This document shows, piece after piece, positions 8,869-47,877 of a stretch of 64,000 nt of DNA; within the stretch, counting starts at the first letter, position 1; each line of letters starts with the position of its first letter. The notes beneath the pieces are model-generated. The model made no database searches. It was given only the letters and a program-made list of their open reading frames with translations, and had not been told where the DNA came from. This stretch comes from Escherichia coli O157:H7 (GTDB lineage: Bacteria > Pseudomonadota > Gammaproteobacteria > Enterobacterales > Enterobacteriaceae), in the NCBI RefSeq assembly GCF_013167455.1, contig NZ_CP038328.1, one strand, 5' to 3'. Both the position numbers and the translations under genes were made by a program.

Positions 8869-9957
8869 ATGCGTAAGCAGTGGCTCGGGATCTGCATCGC
8901 GGCAGGAATGCTCGCGGCATGTACAAGCGATGATGGTCAGCAACAGACAGTAAGTGTACCGCAGCCTGCGGTATGTAACGGCCCCATAGTTGAAATTAGC
9001 GGGGCGGACCCGCGTTTCGAACCACTGAACGCGACGGCAAATCAGGATTACCAGCGCGACGGTAAAAGCTACAAAATCGTGCAGGATCCGTCTCGATTTA
9101 TCCAGGCGGGACTGGCGGCAATCTATGATGCCGAACCAGGCAGTAACCTGACGGCCTCTGGCGAAGCTTTCGATCCGACACAGCTGACGGCGGCCCATCC
9201 AACGCTTCCGATCCCCAGCTACGCCAGAATCACTAACCTGGCTAACGGGCGAATGATCGTGGTGCGCATTAATGATCGCGGTCCTTACGGCAACGACCGC
9301 GTTATTTCGCTTTCTCGCGCAGCAGCTGACCGTCTTAACACGTCAAACAACACCAAAGTTCGTATCGATCCGATTATTGTCGCCCAGGATGGTTCGCTTT
9401 CTGGTCCTGGTATGGCTTGTACCACAGTCGCCAAACAGACTTACGCCCTGCCTGCACCTCCCGATTTAAGCGGTGGCGCGGGAACAAGTTCAGTGTCTGG
9501 CCCGCAGGGTGACATTCTTCCGGTCAGTAATTCGACGCTAAAAAGCGAAGATCCGACCGGCGCGCCGGTAACCAGCAGCGGTTTCCTCGGCGCACCAACG
9601 ACCTTAGCGCCAGGTGTACTGGAAGGCAGCGAACCGACGCCTGCTCCACAGCCCGTTGTTACAGCTCCGTCGACAACGCCTGCAACCTCGCCTGCAATGG
9701 TGACACCGCAAGCCGCCTCGCAAAGCGCCAGCGGCAACTTTATGGTGCAGGTCGGGGCCGTAAGCGATCAGGCTCGTGCGCAACAGTACCAACAGCAACT
9801 GGGACAGAAGTTCGGCGTCCCCGGTCGCGTAACTCAAAATGGCGCGGTCTGGCGGATCCAGCTTGGCCCATTCGCCAACAAAGCCGAAGCCAGTACCTTG
9901 CAGCAACGTTTGCAAACCGAAGCCCAATTACAGTCATTTATTACCACCGCGCAGTAG
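8869..9957 (+). CDS. rlpA: septal ring lytic transglycosylase / rare lipoprotein A
   Basis: 362 aa ORF; lipobox (MLAACTS); Pro/Thr/Ser/Ala-rich linker and C-terminal SPOR-like region. Confidence 0.95.
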   Translation: MRKQWLGICIAAGMLAACTSDDGQQQTVSVPQPAVCNGPIVEISGADPRFEPLNATANQDYQRDGKSYKIVQDPSRFIQAGLAAIYDAEPGSNLTASGEAFDPTQLTAAHPTLPIPSYARITNLANGRMIVVRINDRGPYGNDRVISLSRAAADRLNTSNNTKVRIDPIIVAQDGSLSGPGMACTTVAKQTYALPAPPDLSGGAGTSSVSGPQGDILPVSNSTLKSEDPTGAPVTSSGFLGAPTTLAPGVLEGSEPTPAPQPVVTAPSTTPATSPAMVTPQAASQSASGNFMVQVGAVSDQARAQQYQQQLGQKFGVPGRVTQNGAVWRIQLGPFANKAEASTLQQRLQTEAQLQSFITTAQ

Positions 9958-10096
9958 CGTAAAGCAGGCATCTGATGTGTCAATTTCTGTAAATGACGTT
10001 AACAAAGTCACGCGGAAAGTCAGATGCCTGCCGGTAGTGCATTTGCTATAGTAGGGCACTTTTTTTAATTCCATCACGGATGTCGTAGTTCAGACC

Positions 10097-11308
10097 ATGA
10101 ATACCATTTTTTCCGCTCGTATCATGAAGCGCCTGGCGCTCACCACGGCTCTTTGCACAGCCTTTATCTCTGCTGCACATGCCGATGACCTGAATATCAA
10201 AACTATGATCCCGGGTGTACCGCAGATCGATGCGGAGTCCTACATCCTGATTGACTATAACTCCGGCAAAGTGCTCGCCGAACAGAACGCAGATGTCCGC
10301 CGCGATCCTGCCAGCCTGACCAAAATGATGACCAGTTACGTTATCGGCCAGGCAATGAAAGCCGGTAAATTTAAAGAAACTGATTTAGTCACTATTGGCA
10401 ACGACGCATGGGCCACCGGTAACCCGGTGTTTAAAGGTTCTTCGCTGATGTTCCTCAAACCGGGCATGCAGGTTCCGGTTTCTCAGCTGATCCGCGGTAT
10501 AAACCTGCAATCGGGTAACGATGCTTGTGTCGCCATGGCCGATTTTGCCGCTGGTAGCCAGGACGCTTTTGTTGGCTTGATGAACAGCTACGTTAACGCC
10601 CTGGGCCTGAAAAATACCCACTTCCAGACGGTACATGGTCTGGATGCTGATGGTCAGTACAGCTCCGCGCGCGATATGGCGCTGATCGGCCAGGCGTTGA
10701 TCCGTGACGTACCGAATGAATACTCGATCTATAAAGAAAAAGAATTTACGTTTAACGGTATTCGCCAGCTGAACCGTAACGGCCTGTTATGGGATAACAG
10801 CCTGAATGTCGACGGCATCAAAACCGGACACACTGACAAAGCAGGTTACAACCTTGTTGCTTCTGCGACTGAAGGCCAGATGCGCTTGATTTCTGCGGTG
10901 ATGGGCGGACGTACTTTTAAAGGCCGTGAAGCCGAAAGTAAAAAACTGCTAACCTGGGGCTTCCGTTTCTTCGAAACCGTTAACCCACTGAAAGTAGGTA
11001 AAGAGTTCGCCTCTGAACCGGTTTGGTTTGGTGATTCTGATCGCGCTTCGTTAGGGGTTGATAAAGACGTGTACCTGACCATTCCGCGTGGTCGCATGAA
11101 AGATCTGAAAGCCAGCTATGTGCTGAACAGCAGTGAATTGCATGCGCCGCTGCAAAAGAATCAGGTCGTCGGAACTATCAACTTCCAGCTTGATGGCAAA
11201 ACGATCGAACAACGCCCGCTGGTTGTGTTGCAAGAAATCCCGGAAGGTAACTTCTTCGGCAAAATCATTGATTACATTAAATTAATGTTCCATCACTGGT
11301 TTGGTTAA
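10097..11308 (+). CDS. dacA: D-alanyl-D-alanine carboxypeptidase PBP5
   Basis: 403 aa ORF; signal peptide; SxxK (SLTK), SGN and KTG motifs visible. Confidence 0.97.
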
Positions 11309-14840: not shown

Positions 14841-14870
14841 AAAAAACCCGCTTTTTGAAGCGGGTTTTTT
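14841..14870. terminator. bidirectional rho-independent terminator between convergent lipA and tatE
   Basis: aaaaaacccgctttttgaagcgggtttttt: GC stem flanked by A-run and T-run, so it can terminate either strand. Confidence 0.7.
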
Positions 14871-46266: not shown

Positions 46267-47877
46267 TCAGGCTGATGCGCGTGACGCCAGCCACTGACGT
46301 AATTGTTTTTTATCGACTTTCCCGACCGCCGTCAGCGGAAGTGAATCCACACACTCCACGCGATCCGGTAATTTAAATTCGGCAATACCCTGTTCACGCA
46401 GGAAACGACGCACCTGCACCGCGCGAAGCGGCTCTTTTACCACCAGATAAGCACAGCTTTTTTCGCCCATCAGCTCATCTTCCATACTGACCAGTGCGGC
46501 GTAGATCACCGCCGGATGGCGCAGTAACAGGTTTTCGATCTCTTCGGCAGCGATCTTCTCGCCGCCACGGTTGATCTGATCTTTCTCGCGCCCCTGCACG
46601 GTGATGTAACCCTCTGGATCAATAGAGATCAGATCGCCGGAACAGTAAAAACCGTTGGCATCAAAGGCGCTGGCATTGTGCTGCGGGCTTTTGTAATAGC
46701 CACGGAAGGTATACGGCCCGCGCGTCATCAGTCGTCCGACTTCCCCTTGCGGCAGTGGATTTCCTTCGGCATCGGCAACCCATACTTCGTCATCCGGACA
46801 CATTGGGTAACCCTGGGTATGGATAATTTTCTCCGCGCTATCATCAAGACGGGTATAGTTCACCAGCCCTTCCGCCATACCAAACACCTGCTGCAACTGG
46901 CAACCAATCTCAGCGGGAATACGCGCCGCAAGCGTGGCAGAAAGACGTGCGCCACCGACCTGTAACAGTTTCAGCGAGGCAAGCTGCGCCCGGCTTTCGC
47001 CTTCGGTCAGCGCCTGCAACCACAGGCTGACTGCCGGCGGCACCAGCGCGGTAACGTTAATCTGATGTTTTTCAATCAATGGGAAGCAAAGCGTGGCGCT
47101 GGGATCGGCCGCCAGAACAACCGTTCCTCCGGCAAGAAAGACGCCCAGCGATCCCGGCGAACTCATGGCGTAGTTATGAGCCGCCGGGATCGCGCACAGG
47201 TAGCGTGTCTGTTGTGTGAACTGACAAATCTCGACGCTACGACGCACGCTGTAGTAGTAGTCGTTATGAGTGCGCGGGATCAGCTTCGGTGTACCGGTGG
47301 TGCCGCCGGAAAGCTGGAAATAGACCACTTCATCAGCAGGTGACGGCGTAGCAGTAAAACCGTCTGCCGGATGGTTAATCGCATCCTGCAAGTTATGCTC
47401 ACCGCTGTCGTTGAGTAGCTGCACCACGCGAATGGAAGAATGCTCTGCAACAAATGTGTTGAGGAAATCATCCCCGCTAAACAGCGCATGTTGGCGATCG
47501 GCAATCAGCAATGCGGGTTCAATCTGGCTGGCATAGGCGTTCAGTTCACTACGCTGATGGCTGAACAACGCCAGCACCGGCGCAACGCCCAGTTTCAGCA
47601 GCGCGAAAAAGGTAATGTAAAGTTCAGCGACGTTACCCAGTTGTACCAGCGCGGTTTCACCAGGTTTAATGCCCTGACGGCGTAAACTACACGCGAGGTT
47701 ATCCGCCGCCTGATTCAGCTCCCGGTAACTCAACTGTCGCTCGCCGTCGATAACCGCGATGCTGTCACTCGCAGCGTGGCGAGTCAGAATGTCAGTCAGT
47801 GGCAAATCCTGCCAGTAGCCTTTTTCCCGATAGCGACGGGCAAACTCTTCCGGCCAGCGGGTGAATGGAATGCTCAT
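46267..47877 (-). CDS. entE: 2,3-dihydroxybenzoate-AMP ligase
   Basis: 536 aa ORF; adenylation core motif (SGGTTGTPK). Confidence 0.96.

Follow-up and report, generated by a model that had tools for sequence, protein, structure and literature searches.

The rlpA-dacA spacer and its inverted repeat

The window considered in this study, a stretch of 64,000 nucleotides of Escherichia coli DNA, carries on its plus strand the genes mrdA, mrdB, rlpA (8869 to 9957) and dacA (10097 to 11308), in this order, and a spacer of 139 bp separates the TAG stop codon of rlpA (9955 to 9957) from dacA. The host is E. coli: of the 5426 complete genomes of this species, 5424 contain a match to a 451-nt query taken around the site, with an identity of at least 99% in 5397 of them. 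An earlier note on this DNA, drawn up from the sequence alone, had pointed to a perfect 12-bp inverted repeat in the spacer and to a run of T residues downstream of it. Both direct reading and the repeat finder returned exactly the arm coordinates, the complementarity and the 44-nt spacing that had been described, with the first arm starting 7 nt after the rlpA stop; the run is exactly T7. In particular, the two arms, GCAGGCATCTGA and TCAGATGCCTGC, are 12 nt long and 100% complementary (Table 1).

The repeat had also been judged unlikely to arise by chance, and the comparison with shuffled sequences agrees with this judgment. Perfect inverted repeats whose arms reach 12 nt or more and whose spacer spans 3 to 60 nt number four in the 64-kb window, whereas 100 dinucleotide-preserving shuffles produced 0.23 per 64 kb on average and never more than 2. 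The expectation for one 139-bp spacer is, by our own arithmetic, about 5e-4. The remaining repeats of this kind lie at 14841 to 14870, 47148 to 47193, and 55673 to 55709; the first of them (AAAAAACCCGCTT, with a 4-nt loop) matches the string that Adams et al. 2021 print for the terminator of cspE.

No second copy of the arm sequence occurs in the 64-kb window, even when one mismatch is allowed, and the 85-nt element that contains the repeat is single copy, with a median of one place per genome over the 5424 E. coli genomes. No annotated feature lies beneath the 85-nt element, and an Rfam scan of positions 9850 to 10200 at a permissive threshold returned only MIR477, with 16.4 bits versus a gathering score of 65 (E = 0.89).

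Table 1. Features of the rlpA-dacA spacer, in window coordinates
Feature	Position	Strand	Relative to dacA start site	Basis or remark
Whole stem-loop in rlpA 3′ UTR	9964..10031	+		Fold, covariation, covariance model
5′ arm, GCAGGCATCTGA	9964..9975	+	−94..−83	Starts 7 nt after rlpA stop; read directly and by repeat finder
Loop motif TGTAAA	9988-9993	+		Near-invariant (conservation profile)
Loop motif TTAACAAAGTCA	9999-10010	+	−70..−48 together with TGTAAA	Near-invariant (conservation profile)
3′ arm, TCAGATGCCTGC	10020..10031	+	−38..−27	Read directly and by repeat finder
−35-like hexamer ATGCCT	10024-10029	+		Inside the 3′ arm; 17 bp upstream of TATAGT
rlpA-sense steady-state 3′ end	10041..10042	+		10-11 nt 3′ of the stem; Term-seq of Adams et al. 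2021
Extended −10, TGcTATAGT	10044..10052	+	−14..−6	Near-invariant in the Enterobacteriaceae alignment
T7 run	10060..10066	+	+3..+9	Within dacA mRNA
Weak antisense 3′ end (...GCCUGCUUUACG)	9958	−		6 nt past the hairpin; Term-seq of Adams et al. 2021

Predicted fold of the spacer RNA

Folding of the rlpA-sense RNA from 9958 to 10041 recovered the long stem-loop that the earlier note had envisaged between rlpA and dacA, with a predicted energy of −32.4 kcal/mol (z = −4.75) that none of 200 shuffles equaled. The fold comprises a 13-bp outer stem, which includes the pair U9976-G10019, followed by a 7-nt asymmetric internal loop and by weaker inner helices. The antisense strand can form the same outer stem, at −25.7 kcal/mol, and the sense strand is the one with the more stable fold in 38 of 49 species (Wilcoxon p about 0.001, a value not corrected for phylogeny).

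Past the stem, the sense strand reads CGGUAGUGCA / CGGTAGTGCA, where no U-tract is found, and the minus strand reads UUUACG, that is, a short UUU and no longer U-tract. A simple promoter and terminator scan calls no terminator at the hairpin; the same scan also misses the extended −10 promoter of dacA. A second small hairpin, located at 10036 to 10060 just before the T run, reaches only −8.1 kcal/mol (z = −2.0). Two further repeats returned by the repeat finder would pair the last codons of rlpA with the loop; we attribute them to chance, the partner in the loop not being conserved in other genera.

Conservation and covariation of the stem

A search with DacA provided 80 loci from different Enterobacterales species, 48 of which belong to the Enterobacteriaceae; Salmonella and Klebsiella are absent from the 80. 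Covariation was counted, uncorrected for phylogeny, at the 12 pairs of the E. coli stem in a 49-sequence Enterobacteriaceae alignment. A long hairpin is predicted upstream of the dacA −10 in all 48 of the other Enterobacteriaceae species sampled, and the register and the length of its stem shift between genera.

The co-variation of the two arms across Enterobacteriaceae, which the earlier note had proposed to look for, is evident in this alignment. Over the 49 sequences and 12 pairs, 82.4% of the cells are paired, versus 29 to 37% in six slid registers; both sides have changed in 7 of the 12 pairs, and the 47 double-changed cells that result were reached in none of 500 shuffles. Examples of compensatory change are pair 20-74, which is UA in 23 and CG in 20 sequences, pair 18-76 (UA in 42, CG in 4) and pair 13-81 (AU in 15, UA in 7, CG in 2), and in Mangrovibacter the arms read CTGGCACCAG paired with CTGGTGCCAG. 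Moreover, the changes confined to one side, counted in the inner 9 pairs, leave 35 G-U versus 7 A-C cells on the rlpA-sense strand, and the distance from arm to arm ranges from 50 to 56 nt among species. Since the double changes are compensatory, the one-sided changes are biased toward G-U and the arm distance is variable, selection appears to have acted on the stem of the sense-strand RNA. Taken as a comparison of sequences, these patterns point to a structure that acts as RNA in the rlpA-sense transcript, and not to paired half-sites for a protein.

As a caveat, RNAalifold, when run unaided, recovered only the six innermost pairs of the stem. The inner helices of the fold are weakly supported, being paired in 68% of the cells versus 56% in a slid register, with a GC/CG flip only at pair 39-67. 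A covariance model built from the alignment has a single match in the window, at this site, with 89 bits.

Outside the Enterobacteriaceae the element thins out. Some Erwinia loci carry a shorter hairpin, with borderline covariance-model scores (E about 0.1), and the model has no match in the Serratia, Yersinia, Hafnia, Rahnella and Edwardsiella loci and in most Pantoea loci. The rlpA-dacA spacers of Rahnella, Hafnia and Serratia contain different compact hairpins located further upstream (at about 1330 to 1440 of the loci): in Rahnella, rlpA is followed by GGGGCTGCGGCCCC and then by a T-rich tail, and in Serratia we could notice TAGCTGAAACATTTTCTTTCAGCTA. These hairpins come from reading the sequences, and the simple terminator scan makes no call in the loci of the three genera to which it was applied. 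Their occurrence suggests that an rlpA transcript ended by a hairpin may be general, and that the sequence used for it is not.

Overlap of the 3′ arm with the dacA promoter

The transcription start site of dacA was mapped to an A residue, which corresponds to position 10058 on the plus strand and gives a 5′ UTR of 38 nt (Kim et al. 2012, PMC3415461, supplementary file 2, where the printed string ends with ...GCTATAGTAGGGCA); in the same data set, the listed start sites of rlpA and dacA have none in between. The dacA start site lies 27 nt beyond the hairpin, which therefore falls outside the dacA leader. For the same reason, since transcription starts at A10058, the T7 run falls at the very beginning of the dacA mRNA (Table 1).

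The extended −10 and the start site lie 13 to 27 nt beyond the 3′ arm. The TGcTATAGT sequence is the most conserved block of the whole spacer and occurs in most of the other Enterobacterales loci, including those of Yersinia, Serratia and Edwardsiella. Furthermore, the arrangement ATG(C/T)CT + 17 bp + TATAGT is kept in Serratia, Yersinia and Brenneria, all of which are without the partner arm. In the Enterobacteriaceae the 3′ arm reads GTC(A/G)GATGCC(T/A)G, at a constant distance from the −10, and the G, T, G and C of its GATGCC are invariant in the 49 species; the mean column identity is 0.87 in the 3′ arm and about 0.69 in the 5′ arm. The 3′ arm would thus be nearly frozen because it carries the −35-like hexamer of dacA. 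Judging from the alignment, the primary role of the 3′ arm is that of promoter DNA, and its 5′ partner appears to have evolved to pair with it.

The same overlap could be read in a different way, namely, that the arms are DNA half-sites for a regulator of dacA, such as BolA, and that the RNA hairpin is incidental. The 3′ arm does overlap the −35 region, binding of BolA to the dacA promoter has been reported, and the GCCAG core of its ChIP-seq consensus, YYGCCAGH, recurs as the core of the arm in Cedecea, Buttiauxella, Mangrovibacter and Shimwellia, where E. coli has GCCTG. However, this consensus holds too little information, a BolA motif at one mismatch being found in 39.5% of all genes. Moreover, the arms are 56 bp apart from center to center in E. 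coli and 50 to 56 nt apart among species, so that helical phasing would be broken, and recognition of DNA does not explain either the compensatory variation of the 5′ arm, with G-U far in excess of A-C, or the shift of stem register and length between genera. What we found is therefore at variance with a palindromic operator: the spacing varies between 50 and 56 nt, and a 5′ arm with an identity of only 0.69 accumulates compensatory and wobble changes. We consider half-sites of this kind very improbable, and the site for a dimeric protein that the earlier note had offered as an option is a poor fit to the variable spacing and to one-sided changes that are wobble-biased on one strand.

The two loop motifs lie upstream of the −35-like hexamer. 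Because the inner helices show little covariation, the conservation of the loop motifs probably reflects an upstream promoter or regulator sequence that acts at the DNA level. The arrangement GTAAA-N5-TTAAC in the loop is loosely similar to the CpxR box, which is GTAAA-N5-GTAAA.

Two observations concern the dacA 5′ UTR itself. Its 38 to 39 nt (10058 to 10096) are almost invariant in the 49 Enterobacteriaceae, to a degree that exceeds that of the start of the coding sequence, and the block CACGGATGTCGTAGT (10076 to 10090) stands out in it, its core persisting in Serratia, Yersinia and Erwinia. This block resembles the high-affinity CsrA motif A(N)GGAUGU; however, a CsrA site in the dacA 5′ UTR (ACGGAUGU) is unsupported, dacA having neither a CLIP-seq peak nor an expression change in the data of Potts 2017. 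The dacA transcript starts with A-C-U7, where the C and the U run occupy 10059 to 10066 after A10058, and the run is conserved in nearly all the Enterobacterales loci. UTP-sensitive reiterative transcription at pyrBI, codBA and upp uses such an arrangement, in which a long U run is among the first nucleotides transcribed.

RNA 3′ ends mapped at the hairpin

The Term-seq data of Adams et al. 2021 (PMC7815308, supplementary file 1) for E. coli K-12 list an rlpA-sense 3′ end at 664018(−), with 91,306 reads in LB at an OD of 0.4, and one at 664017(−), with 41,794 reads in LB at an OD of 2.0. An end antisense to rlpA is listed at 664101(+), with 1,166 reads in the sheet for LB at an OD of 0.4 and 1,788 reads in a second sheet; the file gives this coordinate three times, which apparently corresponds to one entry for each growth condition. 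The ends were placed on the window through the printed 61-nt strings, which are identical to the window sequence, so that the K-12 coordinate equals 674059 minus the window coordinate. Comparison of the two coordinates places the 3′ end at nucleotide 51 of each string, a register that was verified with the ends of the aspU and aspV tRNAs. It follows that the strong sense end falls at 10041/10042, 10 to 11 nt past the stem, as the Term-seq evidence that the earlier note had called for. That note had staked its proposal on arms that persist and co-vary in related genomes and on transcript ends in the region, and both were found. The names rlpA and dacA are absent from the labeled entries of the Rho termination region table of Adams et al. 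2021, and the SMRT-Cappable-seq supplements mention neither gene.

The T7 run, which had been noticed as a possible terminator tail, does not behave as one: it belongs to the dacA mRNA, and no 3′ end is listed in PMC7815308 between K-12 662338 and 664018, that is, from the ybeD terminator to the hairpin site. For the same reasons we rejected the run as the tail of the small hairpin at 10036 to 10060, which reaches only −8.1 kcal/mol; no 3′ end follows the run, and the run itself belongs to the dacA mRNA. The suggestion of a terminator or attenuator had a mixed outcome: the data support a stem-loop tied to the end of the rlpA transcript, but an attenuator in the dacA leader does not agree with a hairpin that lies upstream of the start site at 10058.

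A position 10 to 11 nt from the base of a stem is the geometry of hairpin-stabilized pausing. It is thus conceivable, even if rather unlikely in our judgment, and it represents the main rival to the explanation favored below, that the hairpin is a bidirectional terminator or insulator that does without a U-tract and that, perhaps with NusA/NusG or with polymerase bound at the dacA promoter, causes release at 10041/10042. Such an element would shield the dosage-sensitive dacA from read-through out of the elongasome operon, and antisense transcription would be stopped at 9958. The distance of the 3′ end from the stem base is as expected, ends occur at the hairpin on both strands, UUUACG comes after the stem on the minus strand, a strong and conserved promoter of dacA's own lies directly downstream, and rlpA of Rahnella is followed, as far as reading the sequence tells, by compact GC-rich hairpins with T-rich tails. 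On the other hand, the plus-strand stem runs into CGGUAGUGCA, with no U-tract, and the terminator scan is empty both here and, in its simple form, in the Rahnella, Hafnia and Serratia loci; moreover, Term-seq records steady-state ends, among which termination and trimming look the same.

The abundance of the sense end also brings to mind a stable RNA of about 80 to 200 nt that ends at 10041, derives from the rlpA 3′ UTR or from a stationary-phase start site of its own less than 200 nt upstream, and has the loop (UGUAAA ... UUAACAAAGUCA) as its active part. In the same Term-seq list, abundant mRNAs have read counts comparable to the 91,306 of this end; the loop motifs are near-invariant, and the end at an OD of 2.0 passed the filter of Adams et al. 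2021 (PMC7815308), by which an end whose nearest upstream feature is a stop codon is kept only if a start site lies no more than 200 nt upstream. Nevertheless, we find no Rfam match, no mention in the literature searched of an sRNA at the rlpA 3′ UTR, no U-tail to which Hfq could bind, no promoter-like site upstream in the simple scan and, in Kim et al., no additional start site between the rlpA and dacA ones; the inner helices show little covariation, and a promoter constraint at the DNA level explains a loop at −70 to −48 more simply. A stable RNA therefore appears improbable. If it were true, the loop would act in trans or bind a protein, and would link the expression of the elongasome operon to another process.

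The earlier note had also considered a substrate for RNase III, and a cut at the hairpin could split a read-through transcript between rlpA and dacA. The hairpin does look like such a site, being a long but imperfect duplex between two cistrons, and intergenic regions within transcripts are described as enriched for RNase III sites in the main text of Altuvia 2018, a text in which rlpA and dacA are both absent. However, the mapped 3′ end lies 10 nt outside the stem and not within it, and the continuous duplex measures 13 bp only before the 7-nt asymmetric internal loop interrupts it, where about two turns would be expected. We regard an RNase III site as highly improbable.

A protective 3′-terminal stem-loop as the favored explanation

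Considering the fold, the covariation and the mapped ends together, we judge it probable, if by no means certain, that the hairpin is a 3′-terminal stem-loop devoid of a U-tract that defines and protects the end of the rlpA (mrdA-mrdB-rlpA) mRNA and that overlaps the dacA promoter. RNA polymerase coming from rlpA would transcribe the hairpin, and the RNA beyond it would be lost, either to 3′-to-5′ exonucleases after termination further downstream or through an endonucleolytic cut in the AU-rich GCA/UUUGCUAUAG. Degradation would then halt about 10 nt 3′ of the stem and leave the abundant end at 10041/10042. Because the stem can form on either strand, the weak antisense transcript would end at 9958 through the same stem formed on the minus strand. 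We could also notice a perfect TTGACA on the minus strand, at 9983 to 9978, inside the loop of the hairpin. In the DNA, the 3′ arm would have a second job as the −35-like ATGCCT of dacA, and the 5′ arm would evolve so as to keep its complementarity.

We infer that the hairpin blocks exonucleases and stabilizes the upstream mRNA, and the initial 3′ end could originate from trimming, from an endonucleolytic cut or from hairpin-dependent release of the polymerase. Two findings sit uneasily with a protective stem-loop. The tail of 10 to 11 nt is longer than "immediately downstream" implies and also fits hairpin-dependent pausing or termination, and the near-invariant loop motifs would be superfluous to a pure exonuclease barrier.

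The closest parallel is a class of E. coli mRNAs described by Dar and Sorek 2018 (PMC6061677), in which a stable stem-loop with no uridine tract is followed shortly by a precise steady-state 3′ end. In this class, termination occurs further downstream, and the structure then shields the RNA from attack by PNPase and RNase II. As in the class described there, the rlpA hairpin is a stable stem-loop with no uridine tract and with a precise 3′ end nearby, and it lies in a short 3′ UTR and is not itself a REP element. It differs in its tail of 10 to 11 nt, in a loop that is unusually long (44 nt) and conserved, and in a 3′ arm that doubles as the −35 region of the next gene. The hairpin thus matches this class, as far as the text of the article defines it, by its stem-loop, its 3′ end and the missing U-tract, while Rho dependence and trimming by PNPase or RNase II are only putative at this locus.

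With intrinsic terminators, including bidirectional ones, the rlpA hairpin shares a GC-containing stem-loop at a gene end, 3′ ends on both strands a few nucleotides past the stem and, on the minus strand, a short UUU. However, its sense strand carries no U-tract and receives no call in the pattern scan, and its 3′ end lies 10 to 11 nt after the stem and its loop measures 44 nt, whereas an end 7 to 9 nt away in a U-run and a loop of 3 to 8 nt are typical of intrinsic terminators. In fact, neither a U-tract at 0 to 2 nt from the stem nor a short loop is found here.

The REP/BIME elements that stabilize mRNA 3′ ends, e.g., at malE-malF, offer another comparison, being intercistronic palindromes able to block 3′ exonucleases and, in this way, to set differential stability within an operon. 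Unlike them, the rlpA element is single copy and orthologous and does not belong to a dispersed repeat family; its sequence is, we assume, unrelated to the REP consensus. A dispersed repeat was accordingly rejected, with one place per genome, an arm unique in the window and one covariance-model site.

Finally, the locus resembles overlapping terminator-promoter spacers, in that an upstream end signal and a downstream core promoter share 70 bp. It is different from them since the overlap is base for base, an arm of the RNA stem being at the same time the −35 hexamer. This overlap gives rise to an asymmetry between the arms, the 3′ arm being frozen and the 5′ arm compensating for its own changes. 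The one neat feature of the locus is precisely that the RNA stem arm and the −35 hexamer occupy the same bases.

Implications

If the favored explanation holds, the hairpin would be a previously unannotated member of a known and ordinary class, and it would account in structural terms for an "orphan" Term-seq 3′ end that lies upstream of dacA and otherwise resembles a candidate regulatory event in the dacA 5′ UTR. This may be of use for the annotation of a cell-shape gene cluster and for the engineering of dacA or rlpA expression. The frozen promoter arm and its compensating partner would represent a clean, small example of overlapping constraints at the RNA and DNA levels. As for the organism, the mrdAB-rlpA and dacA messages would be separate units, and the compact spacer between them would serve at two levels, in the RNA as a stem and in the DNA as a promoter.
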